A stretch of DNA of 64,000 bases from Candidatus Microgenomatus sp. (lineage in GTDB: Bacteria > Patescibacteriota > Microgenomatia > UBA8517), in assembly GCA_020724585.1 (NCBI GenBank), contig DYGS01000001.1:136096-200095 (forward strand). The letters are read 5' to 3'. Under the pieces are notes generated by a model. The model was not told the DNA's origin and searched no databases. It was given only the letters and a program-made list of their open reading frames with translations. Below are positions 5,718 through 57,714 of the stretch, one piece after another. Position 1 is the stretch's first letter, and each line of letters begins with the position of its first letter. A program made the position numbers and the translations under genes.

Positions 5718-6176
5718 ATGAAATCCTATTCTGAATTATTAGATGAGTTTAAAGAAATTTCTGCTGAATTAGAAAAGTTAATAATTAAATTTCCGAAAGA
5801 AAAGGTAGAAATAACTGTCTTTGATAAATGGTCATTAAAAAATGTTGTTTCACATCTCAATCATTGGATGGAACACGATATTCTATGTTTAGAATCATTA
5901 CAAAATGGAATTGTCCCATTTTGGGAACCAGATGTTGAAGAATTTAATAGAAAAGGAGTTGAAGCAAGAAAAGATTATAGTTGGGATATTGTGTTTAAAG
6001 AGTTTTTAGATTTAAAAGCAAAACTAATAAATATTTTTAAAAATTTAGAACTAGATTTAGAAAATGCAAGAATATGGCCAGATAAAAATGAAACGCCAAG
6101 GAGATTTTTAGAAGAAGACATTAAACATTGGAGAGATGAACACATAAAATCTCTAAACGACTTTTTCAATAAATGA
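5718..6176 (+). CDS. ClbS/DfsB-like (DUF1706) four-helix-bundle protein
   Basis: 'WSLKNVVSHLNHW' resembles the ClbS 'W..KDLVSYLLGW' core. Size 152 aa with an all-helical pattern. The assignment is tentative. Confidence 0.5.
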   Translation: MKSYSELLDEFKEISAELEKLIIKFPKEKVEITVFDKWSLKNVVSHLNHWMEHDILCLESLQNGIVPFWEPDVEEFNRKGVEARKDYSWDIVFKEFLDLKAKLINIFKNLELDLENARIWPDKNETPRRFLEEDIKHWRDEHIKSLNDFFNK

Positions 6177-12116: not shown

Positions 12117-12371
12117 TTAGTGTTTGTATGCATTTTGTCTGTGTTGGATTTTGTTTACTAAAATAATTAATTCTTTTTTCTTAAATTCATAAATAATTCT
12201 ATATGGCCATGCTCGAATGGTATAACTTCCGATTAGTTTTCCTGTAAGCGGTTTTCCTGAAAGGGGGTTTGATTCAATTGATTTTAATTTTTTAATAACC
12301 TTTTTTTGCTCTGATTTTGGAAGTTTAGAAAATTCTTTCTCTGAATCTTTTGTAAGTACTAATTGAGACAT
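12117..12371 (-). CDS. RelE/ParE-family type II toxin
   Basis: 84 aa with a RelE-like '...YRIIYEFKKKELIILVNKIQHRQNAY' C-terminus; overlaps the upstream Phd-like gene by 1 nt. Confidence 0.75.
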   Translation of the reverse strand: MSQLVLTKDSEKEFSKLPKSEQKKVIKKLKSIESNPLSGKPLTGKLIGSYTIRAWPYRIIYEFKKKELIILVNKIQHRQNAYKH

Positions 12372-12652
12372 TAATTAATGTTATACTTCTTGGTAAGGTT
12401 ATCAAGAGTTATGAAATTGCCTTTTTTGTAGTCTATTTGGGATTTTTTAATATCCCTCATGAGTTTTTTGTCACTTAATATTTCAAGTGTTTCCTCCCAG
12501 GCTTCAACATCTTCGATAGGCATAACAACCGCCCTAGTTTTACCCCTGTGTGTAATTATAAAACGGCGTAAATTATCTCCAACTTCTTCAAGAATTTGGT
12601 AAAAATTAGCACGAGCAATATTTGCAGGTAATGTTCCTGATAATACATTCAT
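12371..12652 (-). CDS. Phd/YefM-family antitoxin
   Basis: 'ARANFYQILEEVGDNLRRFIITHRGKTRAVVMPIEDVEAWEETLEIL' is the canonical Phd/YefM pattern. Confidence 0.8.
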   Translation of the reverse strand: MNVLSGTLPANIARANFYQILEEVGDNLRRFIITHRGKTRAVVMPIEDVEAWEETLEILSDKKLMRDIKKSQIDYKKGNFITLDNLTKKYNIN

Positions 12653-12702: not shown

Positions 12703-12909
12703 CTAGTGTTGTTCGATTACTAAAGATTTTAAATCTTCCTTTAAACTGCCCTGCATGCCGATTGTTGCTTTTAGTTCCTCAAGAGTGATTTTGTCACTAT
12801 TATAATCATTCAGAGCTCGAGCAATTTTCGAGTGTAGGTCGCCTCGCCAGTCTTCCAAAGGCTGCTTGCCTTCCATGGAACTTTTCTTACTCCTCTCAAA
12901 GAATGTCAT
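12703..12909 (-). CDS. hypothetical 68-aa helical protein directly upstream of phd-relE on the same strand
   Basis: ORF only; charged and helical; possibly a third component of the TA locus. Confidence 0.3.
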   Translation of the reverse strand: MTFFERSKKSSMEGKQPLEDWRGDLHSKIARALNDYNSDKITLEELKATIGMQGSLKEDLKSLVIEQH

Positions 12910-12974
12910 TGATATGTAGCAATTATATATCTTTACACTTCAAATTCCAAACTTTGGCCTGTATAATTAGCTTC

Positions 12975-14687
12975 ATGATGAGAAGTAATGATGTTAGAGA
13001 AAAGTATTTAAAATTTTTTGAAAAAAGAGGGCACAAAATAATTTCTCCTGCACCACTTGTATTAGAAACTGATCCAACAACACTTTTTACAAGTTCTGGT
13101 ATGCAACCACTCGTTCCTTATTTAATGGGAGAAAAACATCCAGAAGGAGTAAGGCTTGTTGATAGCCAACCGTCTATAAGACTTCAAGATATTGAAGAAG
13201 TTGGAGATAACAGACATACAACTTTTTTTGAAATGTTAGGCAATTGGAGTTTGGGAGATTATTTTAAAAAAGACCAACTTCCGTGGATCTGGGAATTTTT
13301 AACCAAAGAATTAAACTTACCAAAAGAAAAATTATATGTGTCAATTTTTGAGGGAAACGAACTTGTTCCTAAAGATTTGGAATCGAAAGAAATTTGGTTG
13401 TCACTTGGGGTTAGCGAATCTCACATTTTTGAATATGGAGTTAAAAAGAATTGGTGGAGTAGAAGTGGAACTCCTGATCAAATGCCTGTGGGTGAAATTG
13501 GAGGACCAGATAGCGAAATCTTTTACGAGTTCACCTCGGTTGAACATCAACATGAGTTTGGCTCAAAATGTCATCCAAATTGTGATTGTGGAAGATTTTT
13601 AGAAATTGGCAATTCAGTTTTTATACAGTATAAAAAAACAGACAAGGGTTTAGAAGAGTTACCTCAAAAAAATGTAGATTTTGGCGGTGGTTTAGAACGC
13701 ATAACTGCAGCTATTAATAATGATCCTGATATTTTTAAAACTGATATTTACTGGCCATCTATCCAAAAGTTAGAAGAGTTAACTGGTAAAAAATATAAGG
13801 ATAATATGGCAAGTTTCAGAATTTTTGCAGATCACTTAAGAGCATCATTGGCATTAGTTAATGCTGGTGTTATTCCTGGTAATAAAATGCAAGGTTATAT
13901 CTTAAGAAGATTAATTAGAAGAATGACAACTAAATTTCCCGAAATAGATAAAATTATTGACAACACTGTTATTGGTGACGAGATTAAAAAATTTAAAATT
14001 ACATTAAATAAGGGACTAAAGGAAATTGGTAAAATTGACAAAATTACGGGCAAGATAGCCTTTGATCTTTACCAATCTTATGGTTTCCCACTTGAGCTTA
14101 CAGTTGAACTTTTTAAAGAAAAGGGACAAGAAGTTGATTTAGAAGAATTTAGAAAAGAATTTGAAGTACACAAAGACAAATCTAAGTCACTTTCTGCGGG
14201 AGTTTTTAAGGGGGGCCTTGCTGATCATTCACCAGGTGTCGTCAAACTTCACACGGCAACACATCTTTTATTGGCATCTCTAAGGAAAGTTTTGGGAGAC
14301 AATGTTGTCCAAATGGGGCAAAACATAACTAAAGAGAGGTCAAGATTTGATTTCCCTAATTCTAGAAAACTAACGGTTGAGGAGCTGACAAAAGTTGAGG
14401 ACATGATAAATAATGTCATTAAAAGAGATTTGCCCGTAAATTTTGCCGTAATGCCAAAAGAAGAAGCTTTAAAAACTGGGGCAATTCATGCCTTTAACGA
14501 AAAGTATGCGGATACAGTTAAAGTTTATTATGTTGGCAGTGACCTAGAATCGGCTTTTTCAAAGGAGTTTTGCGGGGGGCCTCATGTTGCAAAAACTTCC
14601 GAGATCGGACATGTTACAATAAATAAACAGGAGAAAATCGGCTCCGGTTTACTAAGAGTATATGTTGTCATATCCAATCAGAAATAA
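12975..14687 (+). CDS. alaS: alanine--tRNA ligase, short form (catalytic + editing domains, no C-Ala domain)
   Basis: 'FTSSGMQPLVPYLMGEKHP...RHTTFFEMLGNWSLGDYFK' is the class-II AlaRS core. Editing-domain motifs 'HTATHLL' and 'CGGPHV' are present. ATG at 12975/12978 is preferred over 12903. Confidence 0.9.
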   Translation: MMRSNDVREKYLKFFEKRGHKIISPAPLVLETDPTTLFTSSGMQPLVPYLMGEKHPEGVRLVDSQPSIRLQDIEEVGDNRHTTFFEMLGNWSLGDYFKKDQLPWIWEFLTKELNLPKEKLYVSIFEGNELVPKDLESKEIWLSLGVSESHIFEYGVKKNWWSRSGTPDQMPVGEIGGPDSEIFYEFTSVEHQHEFGSKCHPNCDCGRFLEIGNSVFIQYKKTDKGLEELPQKNVDFGGGLERITAAINNDPDIFKTDIYWPSIQKLEELTGKKYKDNMASFRIFADHLRASLALVNAGVIPGNKMQGYILRRLIRRMTTKFPEIDKIIDNTVIGDEIKKFKITLNKGLKEIGKIDKITGKIAFDLYQSYGFPLELTVELFKEKGQEVDLEEFRKEFEVHKDKSKSLSAGVFKGGLADHSPGVVKLHTATHLLLASLRKVLGDNVVQMGQNITKERSRFDFPNSRKLTVEELTKVEDMINNVIKRDLPVNFAVMPKEEALKTGAIHAFNEKYADTVKVYYVGSDLESAFSKEFCGGPHVAKTSEIGHVTINKQEKIGSGLLRVYVVISNQK

Positions 14688-16677
14688 TAAGGAAGATGAA
14701 GCCTACTGGGCGATTATTTTGGAGGATAATTGGGTATCTTCTGCCGTTTGGGTTATTAAGGATGGTAACGCCCAGATCATTTTTCAGGGAGAAGGAATAA
14801 GATATGAAGAAAATTTGACTGAAGCAGTTGATACATCGCTTTCAACGGTTGCTCAAAATTTGCCTGAGGATATCAAAGAACCTTCAAAAACTGTTTTTGG
14901 TCTTCCTTCAAATTGGGTTAGCGAAGGTAATATAAAAGAAGAGAAACTTGCGGTTTTGAAGAAGATTTGTGAAGATTTATCCTTAGCACCATCAGGATTT
15001 GTGGTTTTATCTGAAGCAATCGCCCATTTTATCAAATCCGAAGAGGGATCTGACTTTTCAGGAATTGTTGTGGGTGTTAATGATTCAGAACTTGATGTAT
15101 CAATTTTTAATTTGGGGAAACTCATTGGTACCACTTTGGTTGCAAGAAGTGTTGTGCCATCGGATGATTTAATTGAAGGTTTAAGCAGACTTTCATCGCT
15201 TATAAATTTATATCCATCCAGGATCGTGATTTTTAATCAAAAACAAGATGAGCTCGCCTCCATAAAACAAAGTTTTGAAGATGTTAGTTGGGGCAAGGTG
15301 GGGGAGGCAAGTTTTGCACATCCTCCAGTGATTGAAATTTTTGATCCTTATAAAAAACTTGCCGCAGTTTGTCTTGCTGGCGGAGCGGAATTGGGTGCGG
15401 TAGGTGCTGACATTGTCAAAACTGACGATTTGATTGTAAATATTGAGGAGCCAGCAGGCGTAACTCCAGAAGATTTAGGTTTTAAAGTGGAGCCAACCGA
15501 ACAAAGCGAAAAGCCGAGTTTAAAGATTCCTCAAGTTCCAAGTTTACCCAAAATAAATTTTAATTTGAACCTAGCGTTTTTGAGATCGCAAAGAAGTTTA
15601 GTTGTAATTTTAGCTTCAATTGCCACATTTATAGTCTCTGGTTTTTCTGTCTGGTGGTTTTTGCCTAAAGCTGATGTTGTTGTTTTTGTGTCCCCTAAAA
15701 AAATAGAAGAAAGTTTTGAAATGGATATCGAAAATAATCTTGATCTAAAAGAGGTTGGTGCAGAGCAAGCAGGAGAAAAGACAAAACAAACAACCGGAAC
15801 TAAAACAGTTGGAGATAAAGCAAAAGGTTCTGTCAAAATCCAAAATGGTACAGCTTTTCCAATAAATTTACCTGCAGGGACACAACTTGTGTCGACATCA
15901 GATTTAAAGTTCCAAACTACTAAACAGGCTTCAGTTTCCGGTGCTATCTCGCCAAGCAATCCTGGGACTGCAACCATTGATCTGGAAGCTGTAAATATTG
16001 GTTCAGAATATAATTTATCAAAAGATGAAGTTTTTAAAGTTGGAAATTATCCAAAAGCTGAAGTTGATGCAGTCGCCGTTGATAATTTTAGTGGCGGATC
16101 GAGTAGGCAAATCCCTGCAGTTTCAAAAGATGACATAGACACTCTTTTTGACGAACTTAAAGAGGAACTCTTGGAAAAGGCTAAGGCCGATTTATTGAGA
16201 GAAATCTCAAGCGATGAAGTGTTAATTGAAGATTCTTTAGAAGAAAGCGTGGTAGAAGATGACTACAGTAATAAACTTGGAGATGAAGCGACTTCCATTA
16301 AACTTTCTTTGAAAATTAAAGTGGTCGCTAAAGTTGCAAAAAAGGGGGAGCTTACAAAACTTGCAAGAGAAAAACTTGAAGGGAGTGTGCCGTCGGGATT
16401 TGTCCTAAAAGATGACCAGATAGAATACAATTTTGATTTAAATGGAGATGGGCAAGATAAACTTAAAGTATCAGCCAATCTTATACCTGATATTTCAACT
16501 GAAGAAATTGCTAAAAAAATTTCTGGCAAATATCCAAAAGTTGCGGAAGAATATCTATCAACAATACCTGGATTTGTGAGTGCTGAGTTTAGACTAAGAC
16601 CAAGATTCCCAGAAAAGATTAAGACGCTCCCCCACATTTTAAAAAATATTGATATAGTTATATCTGCCCAAAAATGA
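14662..16677 (+). CDS. large bitopic membrane protein: ~310-aa cytoplasmic N-domain, one TM helix, ~335-aa extracytoplasmic beta-rich C-domain; function unknown
   Basis: TM 'LVVILASIATFIVSGFSVWWFL' at about aa 315-336. The N-domain has a weak, Gly-poor resemblance to actin-like PilM/FtsA beta-hairpins (tentative). Overlaps alaS by 26 nt and the sortase gene by 4 nt. Confidence 0.65.
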   Translation: MLSYPIRNNKEDEAYWAIILEDNWVSSAVWVIKDGNAQIIFQGEGIRYEENLTEAVDTSLSTVAQNLPEDIKEPSKTVFGLPSNWVSEGNIKEEKLAVLKKICEDLSLAPSGFVVLSEAIAHFIKSEEGSDFSGIVVGVNDSELDVSIFNLGKLIGTTLVARSVVPSDDLIEGLSRLSSLINLYPSRIVIFNQKQDELASIKQSFEDVSWGKVGEASFAHPPVIEIFDPYKKLAAVCLAGGAELGAVGADIVKTDDLIVNIEEPAGVTPEDLGFKVEPTEQSEKPSLKIPQVPSLPKINFNLNLAFLRSQRSLVVILASIATFIVSGFSVWWFLPKADVVVFVSPKKIEESFEMDIENNLDLKEVGAEQAGEKTKQTTGTKTVGDKAKGSVKIQNGTAFPINLPAGTQLVSTSDLKFQTTKQASVSGAISPSNPGTATIDLEAVNIGSEYNLSKDEVFKVGNYPKAEVDAVAVDNFSGGSSRQIPAVSKDDIDTLFDELKEELLEKAKADLLREISSDEVLIEDSLEESVVEDDYSNKLGDEATSIKLSLKIKVVAKVAKKGELTKLAREKLEGSVPSGFVLKDDQIEYNFDLNGDGQDKLKVSANLIPDISTEEIAKKISGKYPKVAEEYLSTIPGFVSAEFRLRPRFPEKIKTLPHILKNIDIVISAQK

Positions 16678-17330
16678 ACAAGAGAAAAATAATTAAAGCC
16701 TCGGCGTTAATCTCTGCGCTGTCGGGGGTAGTAATACTCTCAGCCTCGACATGGCCGATTATTGAATACCAGTTAGTTGATGCTCAAAATTATCAAACAC
16801 TGTTAACACCTCTTTCTTTAGAAAAATTTAACGCCCAAAACCCAACCGATTACACAAAGGCGTCAAATTGGTTTCCCGATGCTTCTCAAAATGTTGATTT
16901 TAATTCACCAAAAGTGACTTATTACACTCTTTCAATTCCAAAACTTAGAATTGAAAACGCCTCTGTTGCCATAGGTGGAGAGGATTTGTCAAAAAGCCTA
17001 GTACAGTATCCTGGAACCGCCCTTCCTGGAAAACGAGGGAACGCTGTGATTTTTGGTCACTCTATACTTCCAATATTTTATAACCCCAAAAATTATATGG
17101 CCATCTTTTCAACGCTGCCGACATTAAGAAATGGCGACGAAATATTTATAAATTATGACGGCGTAAATTATAAATTTGTCGTTGAAGAAGTTTATGAAAT
17201 TTTTCCATCTGATATTCAGATATTGGAACAGGATCCAAGCGATTCGTTTATAACTTTGGTCACATGTACGCCGCCTGGCGATCCTAGAAATCCGAAAAGA
17301 TTAATTGTCAAAGCAAGAGTAGTTTCTTGA
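16674..17330 (+). CDS. sortase (transpeptidase) family protein
   Basis: N-terminal TM anchor; catalytic His in 'NAVIFGHS', Cys in the 'TLVTCTPPG' (TLxTC) motif, and Arg in 'RLIVKARV'. Confidence 0.8.
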   Translation: MNKRKIIKASALISALSGVVILSASTWPIIEYQLVDAQNYQTLLTPLSLEKFNAQNPTDYTKASNWFPDASQNVDFNSPKVTYYTLSIPKLRIENASVAIGGEDLSKSLVQYPGTALPGKRGNAVIFGHSILPIFYNPKNYMAIFSTLPTLRNGDEIFINYDGVNYKFVVEEVYEIFPSDIQILEQDPSDSFITLVTCTPPGDPRNPKRLIVKARVVS

Positions 17331-17332
17331 AA

Positions 17333-17722
17333 ATGAATATACTGGGAATCGATTACGGGAAAAGTAAAGTAGGTCTGGCCCTTTCTCGGGGCAAACTTTC
17401 CGAGCCCCTAAGAGTTATTAAATACAAAGATGAAAACAATTTAATTCAAGAAATACAAAAAATAATAATACAAGAAAAAATAGAAAAAATTGTTGTTGGA
17501 ATATCAGAGGGAGAAATGGCTGAAGAGTCGAAGAAGTTTAGTTTAGATTTAAAGAACGCTTTAGATGTTTCTGTTGTTAATCAAGACGAAACACTTTCAA
17601 CAAGGGATGCTATAAATTTGTCTATTCAAGGTGGAATTGGAAGAAAAAAGAGAAAAGAAATGGAAGATGCCTATGCCGCTTCCATAATGCTCCAGAATTA
17701 TATTGACTCTTTTTCCCATTGA
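17333..17722 (+). CDS. ruvX: Holliday-junction resolvase-like RuvX/YqgF
   Basis: 'MNILGIDYGKSKVGLALS' N-terminus. ATG 17333 is preferred; the track start 17327 is a TTG. Confidence 0.85.
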   Translation: MNILGIDYGKSKVGLALSRGKLSEPLRVIKYKDENNLIQEIQKIIIQEKIEKIVVGISEGEMAEESKKFSLDLKNALDVSVVNQDETLSTRDAINLSIQGGIGRKKRKEMEDAYAASIMLQNYIDSFSH

Positions 17723-17753: not shown

Positions 17754-17951
17754 ATGTTTAAGAATGTGATAGCTCCAATACAGGCATGGCTCCTTTCCCA
17801 AGGAAAGTGTGTCGGTTGTGGGATGCCCCTGTCAAAGGCTAAAACTCAAAAGCATAAGTATGGACAAATGGTGACATGTAAATGTGGAAGAATTTATATT
17901 CAAGACATGAAAACCAAAAAATACAGAAGAGCACTGCTAAATGAAGTCTAG
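17754..17951 (+). CDS. small zinc-ribbon protein (CxxC...CxC)
   Basis: 'CVGCG...CKCGRIY'. Confidence 0.4.
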   Translation: MFKNVIAPIQAWLLSQGKCVGCGMPLSKAKTQKHKYGQMVTCKCGRIYIQDMKTKKYRRALLNEV

Positions 17952-55811: not shown

Positions 55812-56741
55812 ATGAAAAAACTTCTAATTATTTGTGGTGCGACGGGAGTGGGGAAAACAAAACTTGGAATATATTTGGCAAAGAAATTTAATGGGGAGAT
55901 TATCTCTTCTGACTCAAGACAGGTTTATAAATACATGGATATTGGGACCGGCAAGGAATGGGATGAAACAGGAGAGGTCAAAATACACGGGTATGATTTA
56001 GTCGAGCCAAGTTATGATTATAGTGTCTTTGAGTTTTTTAAATTTGCAAAAAAAACGATAGAAGATATTTGGTCAAGAAATAAATTGCCGATTGCAGTCG
56101 GCGGGACGGGATTTTATATAAAAAGTATAACGGGCGGAATTGAAACTTTAGATGTTCCTAAAAATGTACAGCTGCGAAAAGAGCTTGAAAATTATTCTAC
56201 TGACCAACTTTTTGAAAAACTTGCAGTTTTGGATGGAGGCAGGGCAGCTAAATTGAATTTCTCCGATAAAAAAAACAAAAGGCGTTTGATAAGGGCAATA
56301 GAAATAGCAATTTGGAATTTAGAGAATTCCAAAAACCGCAAGATAATTAAAAAAAAGAGCAAACTGCTAGCGAATGAGGTGGATTTTTTAAGAATTGGAT
56401 TGGCGGAAAATATAGATATTTTGAAAAACAGGTTGGAGACAAAAATTGAGGATAGAATAAATAAAGGATTTATTGAAGAAATTGAATCTTTACTCCGGAA
56501 AGGAATTTCTTGGAAAAATCAGTCCATGAGAGCAATTGGTTATAAAGAAGCTGAAGATTTCTTAAAAAAAGGTCTTACTTATGAAGAATTTTTGAGAAAC
56601 TGGTTAAGCAGTGAAATGAAATATATTAAAAGGCAGATAACATGGTTTAAGAAAGATAGACAAATAAAATGGTTTAATGTTGGAGATTTAAATTTACATC
56701 AAAGAATAGAAAAAATAGTCAGAAAATGGTACGATATGTGA
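55812..56741 (+). CDS. miaA: tRNA dimethylallyltransferase
   Basis: 'LIICGATGVGKTKLGIYLAKKFNGEIISSDSRQVYKYMDIGTGK'. Confidence 0.9.
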   Translation: MKKLLIICGATGVGKTKLGIYLAKKFNGEIISSDSRQVYKYMDIGTGKEWDETGEVKIHGYDLVEPSYDYSVFEFFKFAKKTIEDIWSRNKLPIAVGGTGFYIKSITGGIETLDVPKNVQLRKELENYSTDQLFEKLAVLDGGRAAKLNFSDKKNKRRLIRAIEIAIWNLENSKNRKIIKKKSKLLANEVDFLRIGLAENIDILKNRLETKIEDRINKGFIEEIESLLRKGISWKNQSMRAIGYKEAEDFLKKGLTYEEFLRNWLSSEMKYIKRQITWFKKDRQIKWFNVGDLNLHQRIEKIVRKWYDM

Positions 56742-56742
56742 A

Positions 56743-57714
56743 ATGCCTAGAAAAATTGAAATATCTCATAAGACAATTGTTTTTACAGCGGTTTTTGTTG
56801 GTTTTTTGTGGCTTCTTTTCCAAATAAGGGATATATTGTTGCAGCTTTTTGTTGCGCTTTTGCTGATGGCGATTTTAAATCCTGCTGTAACAAAACTGTC
56901 AAAATATAAGATCCCAAAAGGCTTATCTGTTTTGGTCTCCTATCTACTACTTTTCGGCATTTTAGGTTTAGCTGTCAGTTCAATAATTCCGCCATTAGTT
57001 GAGCAGACAACAAATCTGGCAAGCAATCTTCCGGGATATATCCAAAAACTTAAACTCGAGCAGTATATAAGTGAGGATATTTTAAAAGAATTTGCTTCAC
57101 AACTTGGTAGTATTCCAGGACAGATAATAAAATCAATATTATCGCTTTTTGGCAATGTCATAAGCATTTTAACAGTTGCAATTTTGGCTTTTTATCTTCT
57201 ATTAACGCGGGATAATTTGGAAAATAATTTAGAGGATTGGTTCGGAGAAGATAATTCCAAAAAAATTGCCTTAGTAATTGATGATCTGGAAAGAAAACTT
57301 GGAGGTTGGGCAAGGGGTCAGTTGTTTCTAATGTTATTAATAGGGGTTTTAACCTATTTTGGCCTTTTGCTTTTAGGAATTCCCTATGCTCTGCCGTTAG
57401 CTATTTTTGCTGGAATAATGGAAATAATTCCATATATTGGCCCAATAGTCGCGGCGGTTCCTGCTGCAATTTTGGGTTTTAGTATTTCTCCCTTCTTAGG
57501 ATTTGCGTCTATTGGTCTATCTCTTTTAATTCAACAACTTGAAAATTATGTTTTTGTACCCAAAGTCATGGAGAAATCAACAGGTGTTCCTCCAATTATT
57601 GTTTTGATTGCTTTAGCGATTGGTTTTAATTTAGCTGGAGTAGTTGGGATGATTGTTTCGGTACCTGTTGTCATAATAATTCAGAGCTTGGTATCTTCAA
57701 AACTTTCTAAATAA
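56743..57714 (+). CDS. AI-2E family (PerM/YhhT-like) transporter
   Basis: 8-TM topology; 'LGGWARGQL', 'IIPYIGPIVAAVPA'. Confidence 0.75.
   Translation: MPRKIEISHKTIVFTAVFVGFLWLLFQIRDILLQLFVALLLMAILNPAVTKLSKYKIPKGLSVLVSYLLLFGILGLAVSSIIPPLVEQTTNLASNLPGYIQKLKLEQYISEDILKEFASQLGSIPGQIIKSILSLFGNVISILTVAILAFYLLLTRDNLENNLEDWFGEDNSKKIALVIDDLERKLGGWARGQLFLMLLIGVLTYFGLLLLGIPYALPLAIFAGIMEIIPYIGPIVAAVPAAILGFSISPFLGFASIGLSLLIQQLENYVFVPKVMEKSTGVPPIIVLIALAIGFNLAGVVGMIVSVPVVIIIQSLVSSKLSK

Follow-up and report, generated by a model that had tools for sequence, protein, structure and literature searches.

A Microgenomates membrane protein with a minimal actin-fold domain and a baseplate-J-like ectodomain, encoded beside a sortase in a conserved housekeeping block

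Actin-like domains are placed at the cytoplasmic face of the bacterial membrane in several described systems. FtsA uses an amphipathic membrane helix, PilM binds the separate protein PilN, and GspL (EpsL), which belongs to type II secretion systems (T2SS), combines a nucleotide-free actin-like cytoplasmic domain with one transmembrane (TM) helix and an outside domain of ferredoxin-like fold. Sortases, in turn, can have a dedicated membrane partner. In Actinobacteria, the gene of SafA lies conserved beside that of the housekeeping sortase SrtA; SafA, a TM protein of small size, acts through an FPW motif and shields SrtA from signal peptidase (PMC9282373). That is, there is precedent for a sortase partner that controls the behaviour of the sortase in the membrane. 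Here, we describe a gene pair from a 64,000-nt stretch of Candidatus Microgenomatus sp. (contig DYGS01000001.1, positions 136,096 to 200,095; in the following, the window) that has features of all these systems. It encodes a bitopic membrane protein of 671 amino acids (aa) and, directly downstream, a sortase. The cytoplasmic domain of the 671-aa protein has an actin fold and its extracytoplasmic domain (ectodomain) resembles phage baseplate J proteins. We know of no other case in which an FtsA/PilM-like actin fold and a phage baseplate-J-like domain occur together.

The pair and its parts are located as follows (positions within the window, all on the + strand).

14662..16677, +: gene of the 671-aa bitopic membrane protein (label 'BIG'), supported by the open reading frame (ORF), full-length homologues and an AlphaFold2 (AF2) model
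14692..15399, +: minimal ASKHA/actin-fold domain, cytoplasmic, aa 11-246, a probable pseudo-ATPase
15400..15588, +: disordered cytoplasmic linker, aa 247-309, with (E/D)-D-L-G-F at aa 270-274 (nt 15469-15483)
15589..15660, +: single TM helix, aa 310-333, from the AF2 helix
15661..16674, +: extracytoplasmic baseplate-J/gp47-like domain, aa 334-671, with the Pfam barrel at aa 383-479 (nt 15808-16098)
16674..16677, +: ATGA start/stop overlap of the 671-aa gene and the sortase gene, read from the sequence
16674..17330, +: sortase of 218 aa with an N-terminal membrane anchor, Pfam PF04203
16845-16874, +: DYTxxxxWF motif of the sortase, aa 58-67
17058-17060, 17265-17267 and 17298-17300, +: catalytic residues His129, Cys198 and Arg209 of the sortase

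The ectodomain carries the phage relationship, which is the new and most unusual element of the protein. Pfam PF04865, the family of phage baseplate J, Mu gp47 and PBSX XkdT, matches aa 383-479 with 28.3 bits vs. a gathering cut-off of 21.1 (E 1.3e-6), and 28 of 30 homologues also exceed this cut-off (best E 3.1e-7), i.e., by its barrel domain the protein is a member of that family. PHROG 6 ('baseplate wedge subunit') matches the ectodomain as well (E 7.6e-6). In a Foldseek comparison with the predicted viral structures of BFVD, about half of the top 50 matches are phage proteins of the 'Baseplate J like', gp47 or XkdT type (E 7e-8 to 3e-4). The respective alignments comprise about 340 columns and thus nearly the full length of the phage proteins (350-480 aa), while global TM-scores are about 0.2 and root-mean-square deviations are high, as is to be expected if the subdomains are hinged differently. 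In our reading, the ectodomain (~335 aa) is collinear with a baseplate-J/gp47 wedge protein of the small type; we consider homology to be solid in the barrel and probable in the remaining part.

When 50,697 phage genomes were searched with the ectodomain by tblastn, there was no match at E<=0.01, so the phage relationship is visible only at the level of profiles or folds. The family profile found two chance matches only among PDB sequences (E 0.77 and 1.8), and NCBIfam holds no family for the 671-aa protein. PADLOC matches neither this protein nor the sortase, which makes a defence system unlikely. In contrast to its phage relatives, the domain is found here as the outer part of a cellular membrane protein within a housekeeping operon: all neighbours are housekeeping genes, and no tail, sheath, contractile-injection or type VI secretion baseplate genes are present in the loci examined. 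Its core is the most conserved part of the whole protein, with about 50% identity between clades.

The AF2 model, which was built on 30 homologues and has a mean predicted local distance difference test score (pLDDT) of 83, shows two well-folded parts that are separated by a disordered segment (aa 247-309) and a helix (aa 310-333). The cytoplasmic part adopts the ASKHA/actin fold with its two RNase-H-like beta-beta-beta-alpha-beta-alpha-beta-alpha lobes, and FtsA and PilM are its best structural matches. With about 235 aa, the domain is reduced to a minimal core and lacks the 1C/2B-type insertions of FtsA; 212 aa are aligned to FtsA proteins of 370-383 aa. Identity to FtsA and PilM is only about 11%. 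The phosphate-1 hairpin reads LEDNWVS (family consensus IEPxWI) and lacks DxGxxxxK; the phosphate-2 hairpin reads GIVVGVNDSELDV and lacks DxGGGT. Both losses were judged by inspecting the sequence against the modelled hairpins. Of the nucleotide-site motifs, only the GG where the adenosine motif is expected (LAGG, aa 238-241) is retained, and the family conserves it. Given these motifs, the domain is probably a pseudo-ATPase that has lost nucleotide binding.

We consider that the 671-aa protein works like FtsA, PilM and GspL but is not a member of these families: the fold agrees, while family models, subdomains and operon context do not. None of the 30 family members matches a Pfam ASKHA family at E<=0.1, including FtsA and SHS2_FTSA, and matches to PilM_2 and to T2SSL/GspL_C are likewise absent. 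Where FtsA has a C-terminal amphipathic helix and PilM relies on PilN, the 671-aa protein has neither this helix nor subdomain 1C; instead, it possesses a true TM helix and a large ectodomain. Genes for pilN or pilO adjoin the 671-aa gene in 0 of 89 loci, and no T2SS or type IV pilus context is found in the loci examined. The likeness to GspL is one of architecture only (cytoplasmic actin-like domain, one TM helix, outside domain); GspL is not among the top 60 structural matches of the cytoplasmic domain, and its ferredoxin-like outside domain differs from the baseplate-J-like one found here.

Both domains are joined by the linker and the TM helix. The linker has pLDDT values below 50 for aa 247-265 and 276-309 and varies in length and sequence, except for the (E/D)DLGF motif, in which G273 and F274 reach a conservation of at least 95% over three clades. 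This motif looks like a docking peptide. All homologues have a hydrophobic segment at aa 313-334, which reads LVVILASIATFIVSGFSVWWFL in the window protein, and a conserved WWFLPKA after it; basic residues (RSQRS) precede the helix, which is consistent with an N-in/C-out topology. A preliminary description of the window, made from its sequence without database searches, had already outlined a single TM helix, a cytoplasmic domain with a weak, Gly-poor resemblance to PilM/FtsA, possibly a pseudo-ATPase, and a beta-rich outside domain. The helix and the ASKHA fold hold up, the latter with FtsA and PilM as top structural matches, and the idea of a pseudo-ATPase draws its support from fold and motifs, i.e., from the absence of the Gly-rich phosphate-1 and phosphate-2 loops. 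The outside domain was placed correctly as well, while its baseplate-J/gp47 identity, apparent from PF04865, PHROG 6 and Foldseek, had been missed.

Next to this protein, the window encodes a 218-aa sortase (Pfam PF04203, E 2.2e-23). Its motifs VIFGHS (His129), TLVTCTPPG (Cys198) and RLIVKARV (Arg209) are conserved in 79 orthologues and in three clades. With sortases of classes A-F it shares the fold, the His-Cys-Arg triad, a TLxTC-type motif (TLVTC) and the N-terminal membrane anchor. It is, however, far below every NCBIfam class cut-off, the best scores being 56.6 bits for class C and 47.4 bits for class E (cut-off 160 each), while its best PDB sequence matches are pilus/class C-type sortases (1.4e-10). 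Furthermore, two of its motifs are lineage-specific, namely DYTxxxxWF, which precedes the catalytic domain, and TCxPPG...RL. Judged by its sequence, this is a genuine, membrane-anchored sortase with an intact triad that falls outside the class A-F models. In all three clades, the D-Y-T-x4-W-F motif lies in the extracytoplasmic segment, about 20 residues ahead of the strand with which the catalytic domain begins; it is placed like the 'lid' of class C sortases, but the DP[WFY] motif of that lid is absent. One locus (L079:10514-11140) has a second sortase-like ORF after mltG besides the one after the large gene, i.e., some lineages have sortase paralogues.

Candidate substrates were sought among all ORFs of the window, which covers 64 kb of a contig of about 745 kb, either by LPxTG-like motifs or by any C-terminal hydrophobic stretch with a basic tail. 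The sole match (56719-57714) is not credible: it is due to a membrane protein that ends in a TM helix and has no motif. Within the 671-aa protein, we rejected two further candidates. The LPAGT at aa 403-407 is internal, i.e., located within the barrel of the ectodomain, and is not conserved (consensus INLxxGT). The conserved C-terminal GTLPH has neither a Thr at P1 nor a downstream TM segment and basic tail.

The 671-aa family is large. In a profile search of 1.84 billion representatives, 8,689 proteins passed E<=1e-3, while E<=1e-30 was reached by 1,845, a number that counts 50%-identity representatives. The best 150 matches are mostly full-length (670-820 aa) with few fragments of 350-600 aa, and full-length homologues are 32-55% identical to the protein. 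Members with a named lineage come from Woesebacteria, Beckwithbacteria, Collierbacteria and unclassified Microgenomates; databases label them 'baseplate J/gp47 family protein' or 'hypothetical'. No description of the family, its architecture or its pairing with a sortase was found in the literature on baseplate J and sortases in Patescibacteria and Microgenomates.

Gene order was compared in 89 loci, of which 80 are Woesebacteria-type (32-53% identity) and 9 stem from two more divergent clades (Beckwithbacteria-like and Collierbacteria-like). The 80 loci show, with hardly any variation, the order FtsK - RodZ-like - small TM - AlaRS - 671-aa gene - sortase - RuvX - Zn-ribbon - MltG - RpoB, and RNase J lies upstream of FtsK in the same housekeeping block. 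The sortase gene directly follows the 671-aa gene in 77 of the 78 Woesebacteria-type loci that reach far enough and, in the same arrangement, in 9/9 loci of the divergent clades; overall this holds for 87 of 88 loci with enough downstream DNA, covering three Microgenomates lineages. On the other side, alaS is found directly upstream of the 671-aa gene in every locus examined. The edges of this conserved slot in the window are given below.

12903..14687, +: alaS (short-form AlaRS), upstream edge, Pfam tRNA-synt_2c 2.2e-100
17327..17722, +: ruvX (YqgF), downstream edge, Pfam RuvX 4.2e-27; its true start is probably the ATG at 17333

Insertions spare the junction between the 671-aa gene and the sortase gene: among the 87 loci holding both, none has a gap of more than 300 nt (maximum 190). 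Elsewhere in the block, such gaps occur between sortase and RuvX (5/84), RuvX and Zn-ribbon (7/76), MltG and RpoB (11/70) and, most often, between the small TM gene and AlaRS (18/70). In three divergent loci, genes are inserted right after the sortase (NUDIX plus M10-like protease; EamA; M10-like protease), but never within the pair. In Bacillus subtilis, alaS is BSU27410 and located beside the yrrL/yrrK neighbourhood. The genes yrrL (mltG), yrrK (ruvX) and yrzL of this species carry neighbouring locus tags (PMC3814617). The alaS-ruvX-mltG neighbourhood, which B. subtilis shares, is thus old, and the 671-aa gene and the sortase gene look like a two-gene unit that occupies the slot between alaS and ruvX. 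Within Microgenomates, the pair is a vertically inherited core module.

The start codon of the 671-aa protein at 14662 agrees with the N-termini of its homologues, and its gene overlaps alaS by 26 nt. Overlaps of 4 nt are frequent in the window, with further examples at 6173/6176, 41755/41758, 42381/42384 and 54213/54216, so the overlap is not peculiar to the 671-aa/sortase pair. Among 78 related loci, 16 have the -4 overlap between the two genes, and the spacing of the remaining ones ranges from -14 to +146 nt. That is, it is justified to regard both genes as co-transcribed, while translational coupling is not a conserved property of the pair. The latter had been proposed in the preliminary description and does not survive this comparison. 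Its two ORFs with their 4-nt overlap, its bona fide sortase with the His/Cys/Arg motifs and its statement that the window holds no LPxTG-type substrate, with LPAGT being internal, were all reproduced, and its question whether the two genes are conserved together is answered by the 87/88 loci. The surface-appendage or anchoring apparatus that it suggested stays conjectural, as neither a substrate nor a pilin or appendage gene was found.

As a tentative explanation, and one that we put forward as possible rather than established, the 671-aa protein is a sortase-associated, envelope-spanning and non-enzymatic scaffold. It would work with the housekeeping sortase of the cell. On the outer side of the membrane, the sortase and/or its substrates would be held or positioned by the ectodomain, which probably forms oligomers as baseplate wedges do. 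The actin-fold domain together with the linker peptide would connect this site with a cytoplasmic partner, e.g., the secretion machinery, the divisome or the cytoskeleton, and the wall would consequently be anchored at a defined place. In favour of such a scaffold are the conserved catalytic triad of the sortase and the absence of insertions at the pair junction. SafA provides a parallel with regard to a membrane-protein gene that stays beside a housekeeping sortase across a large lineage. In contrast to SafA, the 671-aa protein has two large folded domains, no FPW-type motif and no similarity, and its contact with the sortase is here proposed.

Several observations weigh against the sortase-associated scaffold. 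Synteny extends over the entire block (about 14 kb) throughout the lineage, in every locus reached, and the junctions FtsK|RodZ-like and RodZ-like|small TM are nearly as stable as that of the pair (1 insertion each). Given this synteny, the fact that the two genes are conserved together says less about a functional link than the bare count implies, and the adjacency may be historical rather than functional. The pair was not found outside the block; walking outward to the two more divergent clades gave the block in all nine loci. One locus (L008) retains a gene of the 671-aa type with RuvX directly after it and the sortase missing. The family does not conserve the 4-nt overlap, and no sortase substrate, pilin or appendage gene was identified in the 64-kb window or the loci examined. 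Finally, the conserved residues D57, D169, E172, H220, E225 and GG-x-E243 could yet form a ligand site in the cytoplasmic domain. As to the exceptional locus, L008:851-3086 is the only related locus without a sortase: its large gene extends to 2842, and ruvX begins at 2847. Since the contig has only 3 kb, the sortase may lie elsewhere in that genome.

Other explanations give the sortase a different role or none. A tether of the divisome or elongasome is rather doubtful, though to be taken seriously: the FtsA-like domain or the DLGF peptide would bind FtsZ, MreB or FtsA, and the ectodomain would engage the machinery of wall synthesis or cleavage, with the sortase being a mere neighbour within a housekeeping superoperon. 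The structural match to FtsA and the FtsK/RodZ/MltG context are in line with this. Yet the 1C and 2B subdomains, i.e., the partner-binding parts of FtsA, are missing (~235 aa vs. 370-380), Pfam FtsA or SHS2_FTSA matches are lacking, and the ectodomain belongs to no peptidoglycan-related fold or family. Moreover, gene arrays of the candidate phyla radiation (CPR) are long and same-stranded, which renders neighbourhood a weak functional signal. The shared architecture would also allow for a platform of the GspL or PilM-PilN type through which a cytoplasmic ATPase would act on a filament outside the cell (type IV pilus or pseudopilus) and in which a baseplate-J-like domain replaces the ferredoxin-like PilN/GspL domain; given that neither pil/gsp context nor a family match is found, we consider this unlikely. 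We judge similarly improbable a farther-reaching version of the sortase-associated scaffold, in which the pair would form the core of an unrecognised Microgenomates envelope apparatus. Here, an oligomeric, domesticated baseplate-wedge platform on the cell surface would be combined with a dedicated, unclassified sortase that builds or anchors a surface structure on it, and the nucleotide-free actin fold, connected to the platform through the membrane, would sense cytoplasmic position or state.

The profile and fold similarity to phage baseplate wedge proteins could also point to a domesticated prophage remnant, or to a surface receptor or adhesin whose ectodomain contacts host cells or phages independently of sortase and cytoskeleton. 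The literature describes CPR bacteria as often being episymbionts, which would suit an adhesin. This reading is nevertheless very unlikely. Other phage tail or contractile-injection genes are absent from all loci, neither tblastn against phage genomes nor PADLOC gives a match, the ectodomain core is highly conserved, unlike fast-evolving adhesins or receptors, and the position within the housekeeping block argues for a core cellular role. Least credible to us is that the 671-aa protein is itself a sortase substrate, i.e., a membrane-to-wall staple whose N-terminus remains in the membrane while its C-terminal region is covalently linked to peptidoglycan, e.g., at GTLPH, 15 residues from the end. 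Its strict pairing with the sortase, the lack of any other visible substrate nearby and the conservation of G-T-L-P-H/R (P657 at least 95% across clades) would agree with such a role, but the motif reads LPH[VIL]x and thus lacks Thr/Ala at P1 and Gly at P1'. In addition, GTLPH is followed by neither a hydrophobic segment nor a basic tail but by a predicted strand of the folded domain (E663-669), and the LPAGT of the window varies among homologues.

CPR bacteria (Patescibacteria) make up a large share of bacterial diversity, and their envelope biology is almost unknown. The 671-aa family belongs to the single-copy core genes of an entire class, the Microgenomates, with 1,845 representatives at 50% identity, and it has a fixed position beside a sortase and among division and wall genes. 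If the protein indeed organises sortase-mediated anchoring or division, this lineage would have solved a basic problem in its own way, and the protein would help to study how these tiny cells build their surface; a phage structural fold would then have been recruited into core cell biology. If the pair were the core of an envelope apparatus, it would represent a new surface organisation of monoderm-like CPR cells, possibly with a role in host attachment. Even if the link to the sortase is only historical, this is a well-defined and confidently modelled uncharacterised family that merits a better name than 'baseplate J/gp47 family protein'.

Some further observations concern the block and its relatives. 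A homologous gene of about 230-250 aa directly follows the sortase in two divergent lineages (L081:10768-11454 and L085:10379-11122). It has an HExxHxxGxxH zinc-protease motif, a weak match to Pfam Peptidase_M10 and, in the L085 copy, an N-terminal hydrophobic anchor; it lacks a sorting signal and may be a further envelope partner. In L083 (5061-6910) and L081 (5066-7032), alaS is split into 2-4 ORF fragments, with Pfam tRNA-synt_2c divided accordingly, which could be due to frameshifts, assembly errors or a decaying gene. Two loci (L071 and L073) are contigs of one metagenome-assembled genome (JAFGPD01), each with a full block. Their sequences differ (identity to the query 36% and 35%), so a mixed bin is more plausible than paralogues.

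Within the window, the pair is embedded in housekeeping genes that lie, with few exceptions, on the + strand: PNPase, a Lon-like AAA protein, RNase J, FtsK, a RodZ-like HTH_25+TM protein and a small TM protein, followed by a ParE/Phd pair on the - strand, the short-form AlaRS, the 671-aa gene, the sortase, RuvX, a 65-aa Cys-rich protein, MltG/YceG and RpoB/RpoC. The ParE toxin and Phd-YefM antitoxin genes (Pfam 1.2e-8 and 2.5e-14; 12117-12652, - strand) are located between the small TM gene and alaS, i.e., at the most insertion-prone junction of the block. The 65-aa Cys-rich protein (17754-17951, +; CVGC...CKC, zinc-ribbon-like) is encoded between ruvX and mltG and has no Pfam match; a 66-aa counterpart occupies the same place in most related loci of all three clades. 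GC skew is positive in every 2-kb bin of the window (1-64000; 0.09-0.35), and ORFs of at least 150 aa are nearly all on the + strand. This fits a genome of strong strand bias, which is also reported for another Microgenomates genome (PMC7143001).

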